Shown one piece after another: positions 31,397 through 36,841 of a stretch of 40,019 bases of DNA (positions are counted from its first letter, which is position 1; each line of letters opens with the position of its first letter). Origin of the DNA: a virus (taxonomy: Duplodnaviria > Heunggongvirae > Uroviricota > Caudoviricetes); the IMG/VR virus record IMGVR_UViG_2531839180_000007; one strand, written 5' to 3'. A program made the translations under genes and the position numbers. The notes below the pieces were generated by a model. The model was not told the origin of the DNA and ran no database searches. It saw only the letters and a list, made by a program, of their open reading frames with translations.

Positions 31397-31460
31397 TTGC
31401 GCGTTATGCATGTTATTTCACGCAATTATTTTGCGCAAGTTGATTTGCTTATCACGCAAT
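31397..31460. promoter_or_regulatory. oR-like operator region with divergent promoters between cro and cI
   Basis: Three 15-bp TTGC-N7-GCAA-type sites: TTGCGCGTTATGCAT (31397..31411), TGTTATTTCACGCAA (31412..31426) and TTGCTTATCACGCAA (31446..31460). Confidence 0.45.
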
Positions 31461-31479: not shown

Positions 31480-32172
31480 ATGAACATAGGAAACCGAGTC
31501 AGACAACTTCGCCAAGCGAAGAACATGAAAATCGCCGATCTCGCTGAAGCAATAGGAGTAGATGCGGCGAACATCTCGCGCTTAGAAACGGGTAAGCAAA
31601 AACAATTTACCGAACAAACACTGAGTAATATTGCCAAGAGCTTAGGTGTTGATATTGCTGATCTCTTTACCTCTGCCCTCAAAAGTAATACTGTATATAA
31701 AAACAGTAATAATGAGGATGTTGCGCAGGTGAAGGATGTGTTCCGTATTGAAATGCTGGATATCAGTGCCAGTGCGGGAAATGGCCTTATCCAGGGCGGT
31801 GATGTCATTGATGTGATTCATGCCATCGAATACAGAACTGATAATGCTGTATCAATGTTCGGCGGACGACCAGCCAATCACATCAAAGTTATCAACGTTC
31901 GTGGGGACAGTATGTGTCCAACCATTGAGCCAGGAGATCTCATCTTCGTTGATGTCAGCATCAATCAGTTTGATGGTGATGGTATATATGTCTTTGGTTT
32001 TGATGACAAAATATACGTTAAAAGACTTCAAATGATTCCTGACAAACTGCTGGTGATTTCTGATAACCAGATTTACCGTGAATGGGGAATTACTAGCGAA
32101 AACGAACACCGATTTATGGTCTTTGGAAAGGTCTTAATCAGTCAGTCGCAAACCCTTAAGAGACATAATTAA
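31480..32172 (+). CDS. cI: CI-type prophage repressor (HTH plus S24 LexA-like autopeptidase)
   Basis: 230 aa; N-terminal HTH (..MKIADLAEAIGVDAANISRLETGKQ..); C-terminal S24 domain with an Ala-Gly cleavage site and GDSMCPT Ser and KRL Lys motifs. Confidence 0.85.
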   Translation: MNIGNRVRQLRQAKNMKIADLAEAIGVDAANISRLETGKQKQFTEQTLSNIAKSLGVDIADLFTSALKSNTVYKNSNNEDVAQVKDVFRIEMLDISASAGNGLIQGGDVIDVIHAIEYRTDNAVSMFGGRPANHIKVINVRGDSMCPTIEPGDLIFVDVSINQFDGDGIYVFGFDDKIYVKRLQMIPDKLLVISDNQIYREWGITSENEHRFMVFGKVLISQSQTLKRHN

Positions 32173-32191: not shown

Positions 32192-32215
32192 GGCCACCGA
32201 AAGGTGGCTTTTTAT
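32192..32215 (+). terminator. Intrinsic terminator downstream of cI
   Basis: ggccacc-gaaa-ggtggc hairpin followed by ttttt. Confidence 0.6.
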
Positions 32216-32226
32216 TACCCACCATT

Positions 32227-32277
32227 TTGCATATTTCGCAAATATTACTTGCATATCTCGCAATTTAATTTTATCTT
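32227..32277 (+). promoter_or_regulatory. oL/pL-like operator-promoter region
   Basis: Two operator-type sites, TTGCATATTTCGCAA (32227..32241) and TTGCATATCTCGCAA (32249..32263), of the same family as the oR sites; a candidate -35 TTGCAT and -10 TATCTT overlap the second site. Confidence 0.45.
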
Positions 32278-32474: not shown

Positions 32475-32519
32475 TCTGGTCCCCATCAACAAGTAACTGA
32501 TAACTTGAGGAGGTGTGAA

Positions 32520-32726
32520 ATGCACAAAACAGAACCAAAAATCGTCGCGCCTGGCTACACAGATGAGGAAATTTATGAGTGGATGACAAAGAAGCTGGCA
32601 GCTATAAACCAGCTTCGTGAAGTGCTGTCTTATCGACAGGAAACAATAGACTCCTTAAAAAAACTGGATCAGGAAATCACGGTTTTATCACAGGATGTTA
32701 CTTTAGATATTGTGCAGACAAATTAG
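32520..32726 (+). CDS. Hypothetical acidic small protein (68 aa), first gene after the pL/nut-like region
   Basis: ATG at 32520 preceded by a gaggagg RBS at 6-nt spacing; sequence MHKTEPKIVAPGYTDEEIYEWMTKKLAAINQLREVL.. Confidence 0.55.
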   Translation: MHKTEPKIVAPGYTDEEIYEWMTKKLAAINQLREVLSYRQETIDSLKKLDQEITVLSQDVTLDIVQTN

Positions 32727-33132
32727 GATCCCATTCATTTTCGTCAAAATCATCAAAGTGATGAATTTGTGATCTCCAGTCTCGATAATCTAAAAATTTC
32801 TGGGCGGTTACACTTATTTTATCAAGCGTGAGTTCATCCTGAATTGAAAGAAGAAGTTCATCAAATTCCATCTCATTAATCTGTTTTGGCATCCAGTGAT
32901 GCTTCATCAGAATAAGGTGAACCAGAGCCTTTTTCCCATTCAACTGATTATAGGGTGTGCCGAATTTCTTCCGGTGCTCATTTAAGACAAGGTCCAGAAG
33001 AGTAAGTAATGTTGCCCTTGATTCAACTTTGCTTATTTCGACTGATGACACTACCCCACTGATTTCAATGCCCCGATACTTTCCAACATTTTCACAGTGG
33101 GATTTGTACAGCGTATAGATATTACCGGACAT
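32698..33132 (-). CDS. Hypothetical protein (144 aa), convergent with the early-left operon, AT-rich
   Basis: ATG at 33132 with an aagga RBS; 3' end overlaps the 68-aa gene by about 29 nt; two 18-19-bp direct repeats lie in its upstream region. Confidence 0.55.
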   Translation of the reverse strand: MSGNIYTLYKSHCENVGKYRGIEISGVVSSVEISKVESRATLLTLLDLVLNEHRKKFGTPYNQLNGKKALVHLILMKHHWMPKQINEMEFDELLLSIQDELTLDKISVTAQKFLDYRDWRSQIHHFDDFDENEWDPNLSAQYLK

Positions 33133-33416
33133 TTCTTTTCCTTTTGCGTTGTTGGGGATAACCAGATTAACCGAATCCTTGTTGTTGGGGAATAACCAGG
33201 TCCACCTCGCCTGATGTGGCTAAAAGCAGGCACATAACAGCTAAGTATTTTCAACCAGAGAGAATCCTTAGCGTTGTGGTGAATGCGGCTCAGCGCACGC
33301 GGGTTAAGGTTGAGGCTGACAGTCGACCTTCTGTGGATACCCACCCGCCTGGTGTGCAACCTTCGCCAGGCACCGGGAGGCACCCGGCACCACAACTTTA
33401 TGCTGTGTGTAGTCCT

Positions 33417-33464
33417 GGCGGTACCAGTTTGTACCCTTGCTTCCGGCTGGTACCGTCCTTTTTA
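33417..33464 (+). terminator. Terminator-like hairpin with T-run inside the GC-rich non-coding element
   Basis: ggtaccag (33420..33427) pairs with ctggtacc (33447..33454) around a 19-nt loop, followed by cttttta. Confidence 0.4.
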
Positions 33465-33552
33465 CAAAACAGAGAAGAGCATCACCGGACGACGGGCTCA
33501 TAACCCAATCCATCCGGGCGGCAGTCACCGCAGGTGTTCTTCTCTGTTTTGT
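33464..33552 (+). ncRNA. Long stem-loop (15-bp perfect stem, 59-nt loop), candidate structured RNA or cis element
   Basis: acaaaacagagaaga (33464..33478) is the exact reverse complement of tcttctctgttttgt (33538..33552). No plausible ORF covers it. Confidence 0.3.
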
Positions 33553-33600
33553 GGAGAAACTAACCGACCTTGCAGGGTCGATATGATGAGGAGCAGCAAA

Positions 33601-33963
33601 ATGGCTAGCGAACGCAGTACTGATGTGCAGGCATTTATCGGGGAGCTGGACGGCGGCGTATTTGAAACCAAAATCGGCGCAGTTCTCAGTGAAGTCGCTT
33701 CCGGTGTGATGAACACGAAAACCAAAGGTAAGGTCTCACTCAACCTGGAAATCGAACCATTTGATGAAAACCGTGTGAAAATCAAACACAAACTCTCATA
33801 TGTTCGCCCGACTAACCGCGGGAAAATTTCCGAAGAAGACACCACCGAAACGCCGATGTATGTCAATCGCGGTGGTCGCCTGACTATTCTGCAGGAAGAC
33901 CAGGGACAATTACTGACTCTTGCCGGTGAACCTGACGGAAAACTCCGCGCAGCAGGTCATTAA
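33601..33963 (+). CDS. Hypothetical early protein (about 120 aa)
   Basis: ATG at 33601 preceded by a gagga RBS; the upstream part of the longer track ORF is Pro/Arg-rich and non-coding-like. Confidence 0.5.
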   Translation: MASERSTDVQAFIGELDGGVFETKIGAVLSEVASGVMNTKTKGKVSLNLEIEPFDENRVKIKHKLSYVRPTNRGKISEEDTTETPMYVNRGGRLTILQEDQGQLLTLAGEPDGKLRAAGH

Positions 33964-34028
33964 TATCGTTCTTAATTAACCGATTATTTATCTCATCACT
34001 GAATATCTTAATATAGTGAGGACTTATT

Positions 34029-34853
34029 ATGTCTCAAAACTTAGACGCAACCGCATTTAATCAAATCCATGCCCTTATTTCTGCTCAGGGTGTTAATGAA
34101 ATTATCAGTAAGATTGGTGCCGATGCTGTGGCATTGCCTGAGAATTTCCGCATTCATGATCTGGAAAAATTTAATTTAAATCGCTTCCGTTTCCGTGGTG
34201 CGCTTTCCACTGCCAGCATCGATGACTTTACCCGTTATTCTAAAGATCTTGCAGATGAAGGCACCCGCTGCTTTATCGATGCTGATAATATGCGTGCCGT
34301 CAGTGTGCTTAACCTGGGTACTATTGATGAACCAGGTCACGCAGATAACACCGCCACTCTCAAACTGAAAAAGACAGCACCGTTCTCTGCTCTGTTGTCT
34401 GTTAATGGCGAGCGTAACTCCCAGAAATCACTGGCAGAATGGATTGAAGACTGGGCCGACTACCTTGTGGGCTTTGATGCTAATGGTGACGCCATTCAGG
34501 CAACCAAAGCGGCGGCGGCTATCCGTAAAATCACAATTGAAGCGAACCAGACCGCTGATTTTGAAGATAATGACTTCAGCGGCAAACGCTCCCTGATGGA
34601 GTCTGTCGAAGCGAAGACCAAAGACATTATGCCAGTGGCATTTGAATTTAAATGCGTTCCGTTTGAAGGCCTGAAAGAACGTCCATTTAAATTACGCCTC
34701 AGCATTATCACTGGCGATCGTCCTGTACTGGTTCTGCGCATTATTCAGCTGGAAGCGGTGCAGGAAGAAATGGCTAACGAATTTCGTGATCTGCTTGTTG
34801 AGAAATTCAAAGACAGCAAAGTAGAAACCTTTATTGGTACTTTCACCGCCTGA
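34029..34853 (+). CDS. DUF2303-like protein (YfdQ-like)
   Basis: 274 aa with a gagga RBS; resembles the CPS-53 prophage YfdQ family by recall. Confidence 0.5.
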
Positions 34854-34980
34854 TTTCATTACTGCAAATGCCCCTGCGGGGGAATTTATGGAAACATAAT
34901 TAACTCAATAATCGCCGGATGGTGAGGACTTCCTTTTACCAGAATTCAGCGCGGTGCAGCGCATATACGTGGAGAACAAA

Positions 34981-35517
34981 ATGTCATTTATTAAAACTTT
35001 TTCCGGGAAGCATTTTTATTATGACAAGATAAATCAAGACGACATCGTTATTAACGATATCGCGGTTTCCCTTTCAAATATCTGTCGCTTTGCAGGACAT
35101 CTTTCACATTTCTACAGCGTCGCCCAACATGCGGTGCTTTGCAGCCAACTGGTGCCGCAGGAATTTGCTTTTGAAGCGTTAATGCATGATGCAACAGAAG
35201 CGTATTGCCAGGACATCCCGGCGCCACTGAAACGCCTTCTTCCTGACTATAAACGGATGGAAGAAAAAATAGACGCCGTAATCCGTGAGAAATACGGGTT
35301 ACCCCCAGTTATGAGTACACCCGTGAAATATGCCGATCTCATCATGCTGGCAACTGAACGCCGCGATCTCGGGCTTGATGATGGCTCTTTCTGGCCAGTA
35401 CTGGAAGGTATCCCGGCAACAGAGATGTTCAAAGTTATTCCACTGGCACCGGGCCATGCCTACGGGATGTTTATGGAACGCTTCAACGAGTTATCGGAAT
35501 TACGCAAATGTGCATAA
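34981..35517 (+). CDS. HD-domain phosphohydrolase (YfdR-like 5'-deoxynucleotidase family)
   Basis: His in ..VAQHAVL.. and His-Asp in ..EALMHDATEAY..; ggaga RBS 5 nt before the ATG at 34981. Confidence 0.6.
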   Translation: MSFIKTFSGKHFYYDKINQDDIVINDIAVSLSNICRFAGHLSHFYSVAQHAVLCSQLVPQEFAFEALMHDATEAYCQDIPAPLKRLLPDYKRMEEKIDAVIREKYGLPPVMSTPVKYADLIMLATERRDLGLDDGSFWPVLEGIPATEMFKVIPLAPGHAYGMFMERFNELSELRKCA

Positions 35518-36386
35518 CTCATGTAGTTAGTTTTTCTGGCGGGAGAACATCCGCATATCTTGTTCACCTGATGGAAGAACAAAGAAAGGCTGGCAATAAC
35601 GTCTGCTACATCTTTATGGATACCGGTTGCGAACATCCGCTGACATACCGCTTTATCCGGGAGGTTGTGAAGTTCTGGGACATACCACTAACTGTGTTAC
35701 AGGTCGATATAAATCCTGAGCTTGGGCAGCCAAATGGTTATACAGAATGGGAGCCAACGGATATTCAGACACGAATGCCGGTGCTTAAACCGTTTATGGA
35801 CATGGTTAAAAAGTACGGCACGCCATACATCGGCGGCGCGTTCTGTACTGACAGGCTAAAACTCATCCCTTTCACGAAATACTGCGATAACCATTTCGGG
35901 CGAGGTAATTACATCACATGGCTGGGTATTCGTGCAGACGAACCCCGTAGGCTGAAACCGAAATCGGGCGTCCGGTATCTTGCCGAGCTGTCAGATTTTG
36001 ATAAGTCGGATGTTATCCGGTGGTGGCGAAAACAACCTTTTGATTTGCAAATCCCGGAGCATCTCGGGAACTGTGTTTTCTGCATCAAAAAGTCAACGCA
36101 AAAACTGGGGCTTGCATGTAAAGACGAACCAGGTCTGATGCGAGTTTTTAATGAGCTGGTTACAGGCAAACACGTCAGGGATGGTCATCGCAGAACAGGT
36201 AAAGACATTATGTACCGTGGTCACCTGACGCTTGACGGAATTGCCAGAATGTCTGCCAACAGCGACTACAGAAATTTGTATCAGGCGATGGTACAGGCCA
36301 GGCGATTCGATACCGGCTCGTGTTCAGAGTCATGTGAAATCTGGGGTGATCAATTGGAATTGGAATTCGAAGAGGTAGGGGTATGA
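35508..36386 (+). CDS. PAPS reductase-like / PP-loop ATP pyrophosphatase family protein
   Basis: N-terminal PP-loop-like motif ..VVSFSGGRTSAYL..; 292 aa; overlaps the HD gene stop. Confidence 0.6.
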   Translation: MCITHVVSFSGGRTSAYLVHLMEEQRKAGNNVCYIFMDTGCEHPLTYRFIREVVKFWDIPLTVLQVDINPELGQPNGYTEWEPTDIQTRMPVLKPFMDMVKKYGTPYIGGAFCTDRLKLIPFTKYCDNHFGRGNYITWLGIRADEPRRLKPKSGVRYLAELSDFDKSDVIRWWRKQPFDLQIPEHLGNCVFCIKKSTQKLGLACKDEPGLMRVFNELVTGKHVRDGHRRTGKDIMYRGHLTLDGIARMSANSDYRNLYQAMVQARRFDTGSCSESCEIWGDQLELEFEEVGV

Positions 36387-36727
36387 CAACCGAAATTAAC
36401 TACCATGCACTGCTTGAGCGCGCACGGAATAAAGTGCAGAGCATTGAGTTCGCCTTAACACAGAGTGCATTCGCTGAGATTCGCGCTGAGCTTGAAAATG
36501 ATTTAGAACTGGCACGGATTGCACTGGCATCTCTGGAAGTTGAGCCAGATGAACGCGCAGCCTATGAATTATTTATGGAAAAGCGTTTCGGTAAAACAGT
36601 CGATCGTCGGAGAGCAAAAAACGGCGATAACGAATACATGGCATGGGATATGACTCTCGGTTGGATCATCTGGCAGCAACGAGCTGGTATCCATTTTTCA
36701 ACAATGTCACAACAAGAGGTGAAATAA
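36383..36727 (+). CDS. Hypothetical early protein (114 aa)
   Basis: ATG overlaps the stop of the upstream gene (translational coupling); upstream of xis. Confidence 0.45.
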   Translation: MTTEINYHALLERARNKVQSIEFALTQSAFAEIRAELENDLELARIALASLEVEPDERAAYELFMEKRFGKTVDRRRAKNGDNEYMAWDMTLGWIIWQQRAGIHFSTMSQQEVK

Positions 36728-36841
36728 TAGAGCCATACAGCCTCACACTCGATGAGGCCTGTTCATTGCTCAATGATATCCAGACCTACCATCGCCGCAT
36801 CAATGCGGCTTTTTCTTGCGTGTAATTGCGGAGACTTTGCG

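Follow-up and report, generated by a model that had tools for sequence, protein, structure and literature searches.

When the gene of an HD-domain hydrolase overlaps that of a PP-loop enzyme in the early-left operon of a prophage, do the two proteins act as partners? We addressed this question in a 40,019-nt stretch of Caudoviricetes DNA (IMG/VR record IMGVR_UViG_2531839180_000007; hereafter the window), in which five co-directional genes on the plus strand fill positions 33601..36727. The first-pass annotation had compared this block with yfdP-yfdT of the Escherichia coli CPS-53 prophage and had proposed that the HD protein and its neighbor, which resembles 3'-phosphoadenosine 5'-phosphosulfate (PAPS) reductases, jointly modify nucleotides or nucleic acids, or degrade signaling nucleotides of the host. 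The open reading frame (ORF) list, domain searches and RefSeq confirmed the five genes and their coordinates. The functional pair is unsupported, as the slot occupied by the PP-loop gene is polymorphic and its product is common without an HD protein. Judged from sequence comparisons, the adjacency is a recombination joint rather than a conserved pair, and the PP-loop gene, a homologue of lambda ninC, is an independent single-gene cassette. Overall, the explanation we favor, with moderate confidence, is a conserved yfdPQR module that damps host replication initiation next to an independent NinC cassette with PP-loop chemistry.

The PP-loop gene (35508..36386, +) encodes a 292-aa protein of the PAPS_reduct family (PF01507 E 1.6e-8, residues 5-71 only; phrog_424 E 9.5e-91). 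Over 285 aa its product shares 79% identity with lambda NinC, a relationship that had been overlooked at first pass. DNA homology to K-12 and SfV ends at 35515 and restarts at 36518. The 1002 bases between these joints are 74.5% identical to lambda ninC at the nucleotide level, code for NinC and supply the initial ~45 codons of the next gene. This mosaic cassette (35516..36517, +), in frame at both ends and not different in GC content (0.46 vs 0.48), replaces yfdS together with the opening ~45 codons of yfdT, so that the gene order reads yfdP-yfdQ-yfdR, then ninC with a new 5' end in place of yfdS and 5' yfdT, then the remainder of yfdT. The left joint falls within the first codons (window, ATGTGCAT; K-12 yfdS, ATGCGCAT), so that both the yfdR overlap and the ribosome-binding region belong to the resident slot. 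The overlapping and coupled starts described earlier are present: yfdR and ninC share 10 nt, and ninC and the last gene share the 4 nt ATGA. Since K-12 yfdS uses the same start codon and the same coupling, the translational coupling was inherited from the slot.

Among 78 IMG/VR loci with a YfdR at least 98% identical, the following gene encodes YfdS in 49, NinC in 17 and another protein in 12. These 12 proteins share the first ~35 residues with YfdS (MRMNVFEMEGFLRGKCVPRDLKVNETNAEYLVRKF) and carry unrelated C-terminal parts; in this, the N-terminal part of YfdS acts like a modular adaptor, and the slot after yfdR is a mosaic hot spot. The region as such was matched in 4227 of 5426 complete E. 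coli genomes, the whole arrangement in only 178 and the cassette itself in 429, with yfdR at the left edge of the cassette in 26 of 40 evenly sampled rows. No INPHARED phage record has the full arrangement. As separate observations, some of the 12 proteins end like ead/Ea22-type proteins, and one protein (P0021) is an in-frame chimera of NinC and DUF551.

At least six other contexts hold a NinC homologue but no HD gene. In lambda, ninC lies in the nin region after ninB, and a 54% identical NinC follows NinB or an HNH gene in E. coli and Salmonella prophages. The early-left operon of the Stx2a phage PA2 encodes RecT, an exonuclease, an SSB-like protein, YfdP-like (59%) and YfdQ-like (52%) proteins, a 147-aa protein and NinC (93%), and contains no HD gene. 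On phage-plasmids of ~95 kb, the neighbors of NinC include ead/Ea22, DUF968 and metallophosphoesterase genes. NinC directly follows, and overlaps, two DNA methyltransferase genes in a Gilliamella P2-like prophage and is fused to a Dam domain in Vibrio phage 44E38.1. Further copies follow AAA_24, SSB and Rv2179c-like genes in a Photorhabdus prophage, follow a UvrD helicase gene in a Photobacterium conjugative element, and accompany RadC, DUF987 and a C5 methylase in an island resembling integrative and conjugative elements. The sole HD_5 gene seen near NinC, in a Moritella island, stands at the edge of the locus on the opposite strand. Close NinC alleles (≥92%) follow yfdPQ-type genes in ~73 of 80 IMG/VR loci. 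Scanning IMG/VR with the NinC alignment yielded relatives of ≥92% only, and the distant contexts came from per-protein contig look-ups; because the ~73/80 sample represents a single lineage, we counted it as shared ancestry and not as independent association.

In contrast to this variable slot, the genes before it are conserved. The first, yfdP (33601..33963, +; 120 aa; phrog_204), is 99% identical to K-12 YfdP and 100% to SfV orf32; it has no relatives in the PDB by sequence, and the precomputed PF27127 'YfdP' annotation tags diverged neighbors of YfdQ. It is followed by yfdQ (34029..34853, +; 274 aa), a DUF2303 protein (PF10065 E 1.7e-92) 99% identical to its K-12 counterpart, and by yfdR (34981..35517, +; 178 aa), an HD-domain protein (phrog_318 E 4.5e-111) 98% identical to K-12 YfdR; the three proteins are 97-100% identical to SfV orf32-30. 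Domain searches bear out the HD protein, which is intact, and the PP-loop protein of the first-pass annotation. YfdR keeps the His/Asp motif positions AQH48-50, MHD68-70 and YAD117-119, and its H50, H69-D70 and D119 align with the HD protein Atu1052 (2gz4), the closest solved structure (E 1.9e-13). It falls under the curated cut-offs of YfbR-like families (Pfam PF12917, 24.1 vs 25.9 bits; NCBIfam NF003009, 19.9 vs 122), and its PHROG annotation reads 'deoxyribonucleoside 5' monophosphate phosphatase'. The last gene, orf114 (36383..36727, +; 114 aa; phrog_660), is a yfdT-like hybrid with a new N-terminal ~45 aa and the C-terminal ~70-80 aa of YfdT: residues 36-114 share 84% identity with K-12 YfdT, and over residues 46-114 the protein is 93% identical to SfV orf28. 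The likeness to CPS-53 therefore stands for YfdP, YfdQ and YfdR (98-99% identical to K-12) but not for YfdS, for which no homologue was found in the block (K-12 YfdS does carry DUF551), and only C-terminally for YfdT.

The YfdP-YfdQ adjacency is kept in diverged Klebsiella-type, Yersinia and Xenorhabdus prophages. These two genes are followed by a YfdR homologue (66% identical) in the Klebsiella-type prophage and by a 178-aa gene with a weak YfbR-like match in Yersinia, so that the YfdP-YfdQ-YfdR trio appears conserved as adjacent genes in both diverged loci. The block is a case of the common, annotated yfdP-yfdQ-yfdR early-left module of SfV/CPS-53/ST64B-type prophages, and its novelty is the mosaic variant with the ninC cassette. 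As to structure, the YfdQ AlphaFold model has no significant match among solved folds other than those of the YfdQ family. One such entry, PDB 9o7m ('YfdQ Protein'), is ~40% identical to the window YfdQ, as estimated by eye from the printed alignment. Its 36 chains point to a crowded asymmetric unit or else a large assembly; the entry could soon clarify DUF2303.

What the conserved genes might do is framed by the only experiments on them, made in K-12. There, YfdR binds domain I of DnaA in a Phe46-dependent manner and competes moderately with DiaA and DnaB, while multicopy yfdQ and yfdR together with yfdS or yfdT suppress over-initiation and inhibit normal initiation at oriC (PMC4776307). For this inhibition yfdQ is required and yfdP dispensable, and the authors propose a lambda-P-like role in host takeover for the ancestral phage (PMC4776307). 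A 2025 survey describes the yfdR-yfdQ-yfdP cluster as "fairly common" in lambdoid early-left operons and lists no known function for it (PMC12315714). In the window, the module is preceded by operators of the cI type and by a structured leader RNA that is conserved (both described below). Upon induction or infection it would damp initiation on the host chromosome as a host-takeover function, and the window would retain the minimal set for this, namely YfdQ, YfdR and the YfdT-like C-terminus.

Several points weigh against this reading. The oriC effect was seen on multicopy overexpression only, deletion of yfdQRST gave no initiation phenotype, and the authors themselves concede a possible overexpression artifact (PMC4776307). 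The YfdT-like protein of the window has a different N-terminus, which leaves its substitution for YfdS or YfdT putative. The HD residues of YfdR are intact, so that the protein may catalyze a reaction on some nucleotide, and the ~73 of 80 loci in which NinC follows yfdPQ-type genes may, besides shared ancestry, reflect some functional link of NinC to YfdP/YfdQ. Finally, a sigma-70 scan returned no convincing pL promoter hexamers and fewer matches than shuffled sequences.

The chemistry of the cassette was approached through its conserved residues and predicted fold. Among 26 homologues, down to 51% identity, S8-x-S10-G-G-R13-x-S15, D38-T-G, E42-H43, C113, K118 and C126 are invariant, as are R142-x-D-E, C189-x-x-C192, K194-K195 and C272-S-E-S-C276-E; six cysteines are conserved. 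The PP-loop reads SGGRTS, whereas aligned adenosine 5'-phosphosulfate (APS) and PAPS reductases have SGAE or SFG at this position. In the NinC model (predicted local distance difference test, pLDDT, 85) the tail bearing SCSESCE is disordered. The nearest folds are APS/PAPS reductases, sharing a core over ~180 columns at template modeling (TM) scores of 0.35-0.47, followed by the sulfur transferases LarE, NcsA and TtuA. From these features we infer that NinC is an adenylating enzyme that depends on ATP and works through Fe-S or cysteine persulfide chemistry, with nucleic acid as the probable substrate. NinC would bind ATP at the SGG PP-loop and then perform adenylation-dependent, cysteine/Fe-S or persulfide chemistry, similar to sulfur transferases of the DndC/SspD type; its target would probably be nucleic acid, and its reaction would not be PAPS reduction for cysteine synthesis. 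Searchable papers on NinC function offer only annotation and non-essentiality. Separately, a Klebsiella-type prophage (locus L179, 5672..7732) encodes a ParB-HTH (helix-turn-helix) protein and a second PAPS_reduct protein downstream of YfdP-YfdQ-YfdR. Over 129 aligned positions the latter shares 26% identity with NinC; it has an SGGKD loop, and we take the two neighbors to resemble the IbrA/IbrB pairing of a PAPS-reductase-like with a ParB-like protein.

The alternative that survives best, although we consider it rather unlikely, is that NinC alone is a DNA or RNA modifier that protects incoming nucleic acid, a DndC/SspD-like transferase using host IscS-type sulfur, and that YfdPQR is unrelated to it. 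In its favor, the best match of NinC in the PADLOC defense library is SspD (E 1.2e-14), with weak matches to BrxP and DndC (E ~0.006). The fusions to Dam methyltransferase (P0078, P0090), the overlap with two methyltransferase genes in the P2-like prophage and the C5 methylase nearby in the island hint modestly at a role directed at DNA, possibly against restriction, and in phages as well as in a conjugative plasmid NinC lies in early or establishment regions. In Dnd/Ssp systems, the DNA backbone receives its sulfur from a PAPS-reductase-like protein, and such phosphorothioation systems are able to use sulfur supplied by housekeeping desulfurases (PMC12839542). Against this, the SspD match pairs residues 5-152 with positions 2-125 of 277, leaving about the second half of the profile unmatched, and no Dnd or Ssp partner genes (dndA/B/D/E, sspA/B/C) were found in the window block or in eleven other NinC contexts. 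Lambda DNA made with NinC present is not known to carry such a modification, and nin deletions are viable. A literature listing likewise gives ninC as non-essential (PMC10695390). We regard as unlikely the broader version of this idea, in which the whole NinC family, including that of lambda, would consist of stand-alone PP-loop/Fe-S enzymes of phages, phage-plasmids and conjugative elements that covalently modify nucleic acid through adenylation-dependent sulfur transfer or something similar, DndC/SspD-like but without partners, and thereby aid establishment against restriction, one of them being recruited here to the pL operon behind a leader RNA new to description.

Joint action of the HD and PP-loop proteins in modification, or an anti-defense operon in which the HD protein degrades the signals of Thoeris, Pycsar or cyclic oligonucleotide-based antiphage signaling systems (CBASS), is improbable in our estimate. 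The 10-nt overlap with translational coupling, the intact HD catalytic residues and the placement in an early operon are what such a pair would look like, and the second, distant PAPS_reduct gene with its ParB-like neighbor, four genes 3' of YfdPQR in the Klebsiella-type phage, indicates that PP-loop genes recur in such operons. Yet K-12 yfdS has the same coupling and start codon, the gene after yfdR varies, and NinC is found without an HD protein in many contexts, including PA2, where it accompanies YfdP- and YfdQ-like proteins without YfdR. As for signal degradation, the nearest families of YfdR are 5'-deoxynucleotidases with weak reported activity and not cyclic-nucleotide phosphodiesterases; the affinities reported for YfdR toward nucleotides lie far below YfbR's (PMC4776307). 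YfdR has no PADLOC match, and no block protein matches a PADLOC model as a system, the partial SspD match of NinC alone being the only one. Neither PHROGs nor Pfam gives any block protein an anti-defense annotation of the kind of Acb1, Apyc1 or Tad1/2, and a literature search combining PAPS reductase, prophage and anti-defense returned no paper naming both PAPS reductase and anti-defense among the 25 top matches listed.

Very improbable, too, is that YfdP-YfdQ, with or without YfdR, forms an unrecognized recombination or anti-RecBCD module standing in for exo/bet/gam. The block does occupy the position of a recombination (Rec) module, the interval from the operators to xis has no gene for RecT, Erf, Red-beta or Sak4, DUF2303 genes adjoin RecT/YqaJ/SSB-like genes in PA2 and phage JC1, and the YfdQ-family entry 9o7m holds 36 chains. 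In addition, deletion of yfdQ reportedly confers weak sensitivity to methyl methanesulfonate and H2O2 (Noguchi and Katayama, PMC4776307). However, the cluster also stands beside complete Rec modules, as in ArgO145, from which the 2025 survey concluded that a role in recombination is unlikely (PMC12315714), and it coexists with Rec genes in PA2. The Chi-rich window fits reliance on host RecBCD, and among known recombinase folds none matched the YfdQ model. On the grounds of co-occurrence, Chi richness and fold, we rejected this candidate.

The last candidate, that NinC is a true auxiliary metabolic gene product, a PAPS/APS reductase boosting host sulfate assimilation, was rejected as barely credible: the PF01507 match, the PHROG category 'auxiliary metabolic gene', the nearest solved folds and a conserved Cys in a flexible C-terminal tail, as in CysH, speak for it, but NinC scores 20.1 bits against the cut-off of 154 of the NCBIfam CysH equivalog NF002537, aligns in sequence over the first ~70-100 residues only, has SGGRTS where reductases have SGAE/SFG, lies in arrays of DNA-metabolism and early genes with no sulfur-pathway genes, and lacks the ECGLH that in the CysH family (E-C-G-[LI]-H) holds the C-terminal catalytic Cys, its own C-terminus reading TGSCSESCEIWG with the tail SCSESCE. 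The literature that labels phage PAPS reductases as auxiliary metabolic genes for sulfur does so without experimental evidence.

Just 5' of yfdP lies a structured leader (33452..33560, +) with a long hairpin, formed by a 25-nt inverted repeat, and an invariant TGGAGWAAC box. The leader RNA folds with −67.8 kcal/mol (z −5.4) and is present as a single copy in the window. A degenerate pattern search of IMG/VR retrieved at least 120 copies in 40 variants. In 14 variants, 94.8% of the cells of the 17-pair stem are paired (34-67% in slid controls), five pairs show compensatory changes, and several U-G pairs are possible on the plus-strand RNA only. The leader keeps 87% nucleotide identity in a Klebsiella-type phage, although the YfdP, YfdQ and YfdR proteins of that phage are only 57-66% identical; K-12 is without the leader apart from its last 19 nt. 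The first gene 3' of the leader is yfdP in 89 of 114 cases and otherwise yfdR, an RdgC-like gene (assigned by N-terminal sequence), an Xis-like gene or yfdS; given this variability, we assign the leader to the early-left operon and not to yfdP specifically. No Rfam family covers it, the weak matches to DicF, STnc100 and THF being at chance level. It overlaps a RefSeq 'frameshifted pseudogene' (33276..33586) that is probably not a gene. Possible roles include those of an attenuator, a processing site or an N-independent antitermination element.

The setting of the block agrees with the early-left position assigned to it at first pass, between a cI-type repressor and xis/int. The window holds a lambdoid prophage of E. 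coli, which occupies the lambda attB site. On the right, the block is bounded by xis (36842..37060, +; Exc domain E 1.2e-40) and a lambda-type int (37038..38108, +; Phage_integrase and lambda Arm-binding domains), beyond which lies host ybhC; the RefSeq annotation of the identical locus agrees on xis and int. A 3.9-kb stretch around the block is 100% identical to annotated E. coli chromosomes such as NZ_CP139196, an agreement far beyond chance. On the left lie the cI-type repressor gene (31480..32172; HTH and Peptidase_S24 domains) and, directly 3' of it, a terminator-like hairpin (32192..32209, +; GGCCACCGAAAGGTGGCT followed by a T-run). Two operator-like 15-mers (32227..32263; TTGCATATTTCGCAA and TTGCATATCTCGCAA) likely mark the OL/pL region; together with an OR-region copy in the cro-cI intergenic region (TTGCTTATCACGCAA; 31445-31459) they form the direct-repeat family D2. 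Between the operators and yfdP are a small plus-strand ORF of 73 aa (68 aa in RefSeq) and a phage-associated gene of the ECs1072 family (32698..33132, −); the small phrog_1744 ORF spans 32505..32726 (+) and is convergent with the ECs1072-family gene, which overlaps it by 29 nt. The ECs1072-family gene is a moron-like insertion that early-left transcription would cross antisense. A terminator scan found no strong plus-strand terminator inside the block from yfdP to orf114, and one at 36794..36809, ahead of xis.

At the far end of the prophage, an O-antigen glucosylation cassette of gtrA, gtrB and a GtrII-type glucosyltransferase gene (449..3211, +), the counterpart of the gtr genes to which the first-pass annotation had alluded, has a GC content of 0.30-0.42, markedly below that of the remainder of the window. 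The window contains nine Chi sequences (GCTGGTGG; 13110, 19051, 19407, 23601, 24921, 26626, 26755, 27026 and 30882), seven of them on the minus strand, where shuffled sequences led us to expect 1.5. A Chi-rich prophage with an early-left operon without a recognizable recombination module fits the 'no Rec module' lambdoid class (PMC12315714). In the host DNA past ybhC, Rfam matched nucleoid-associated noncoding RNA 4 (naRNA4, CssrE) with 71.9 bits (39595..39665, −).

The block itself is ordinary: yfdPQR has matches in some four fifths of complete E. coli genomes, and lambda maps have shown ninC for decades. Recognizing a joint where a pair had been assumed keeps a plausible but unsupported anti-defense story from spreading. 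It also splits the problem in two: whether YfdQ and YfdR damp host replication at native expression, and what NinC acts on. The link of NinC to methyltransferases and the covarying leader RNA provide concrete leads.

Compared with known systems, the block is closest to yfdP-Q-R-S-T of K-12 CPS-53 (KpLE1) and orf32-orf28 of SfV, with which it shares the gene order, the place between immunity region and xis/int, the overlap of the yfdR stop with the next start, the C-terminus of YfdT and gtr genes at the prophage end. It differs from both in that the ninC cassette takes the place of yfdS and the first third of yfdT, and from CPS-53, which lies at argW, in its lambda attB site beside ybhC and its lambda-type int/xis. 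Lambda NinC (nin290; 290 aa vs 292 here) shares all conserved motifs and is likewise a single gene without a dedicated partner, but lies in the early-right nin region after ninB, whereas the window copy follows yfdR in the early-left operon and has its closest alleles (93% aa) in early-left regions of Stx2a phages and on phage-plasmids. With DndC, SspD and BrxP, NinC has in common the PAPS_reduct PP-loop core with conserved cysteines; its length falls far short of the DndC (468-481) and BrxP (779) profiles, and the C-terminal SCSESCE tail is its own. CysH and APS reductases (2goy, 6vpu, 1sur) share with it DTG, CxxC and a flexible Cys-bearing C-terminal tail, whereas TM scores of 0.35-0.47, similarity over ~100 N-terminal residues and the absence of ECGLH set NinC apart. 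YfdR, in turn, has the HD fold with His...His-Asp...Asp of YfbR-type 5'-deoxynucleotidases, to which the phage T5 enzyme Dmp is presumably similar as well, and differs from YfbR in falling below the family cut-offs and in its separately reported DnaA-binding activity.

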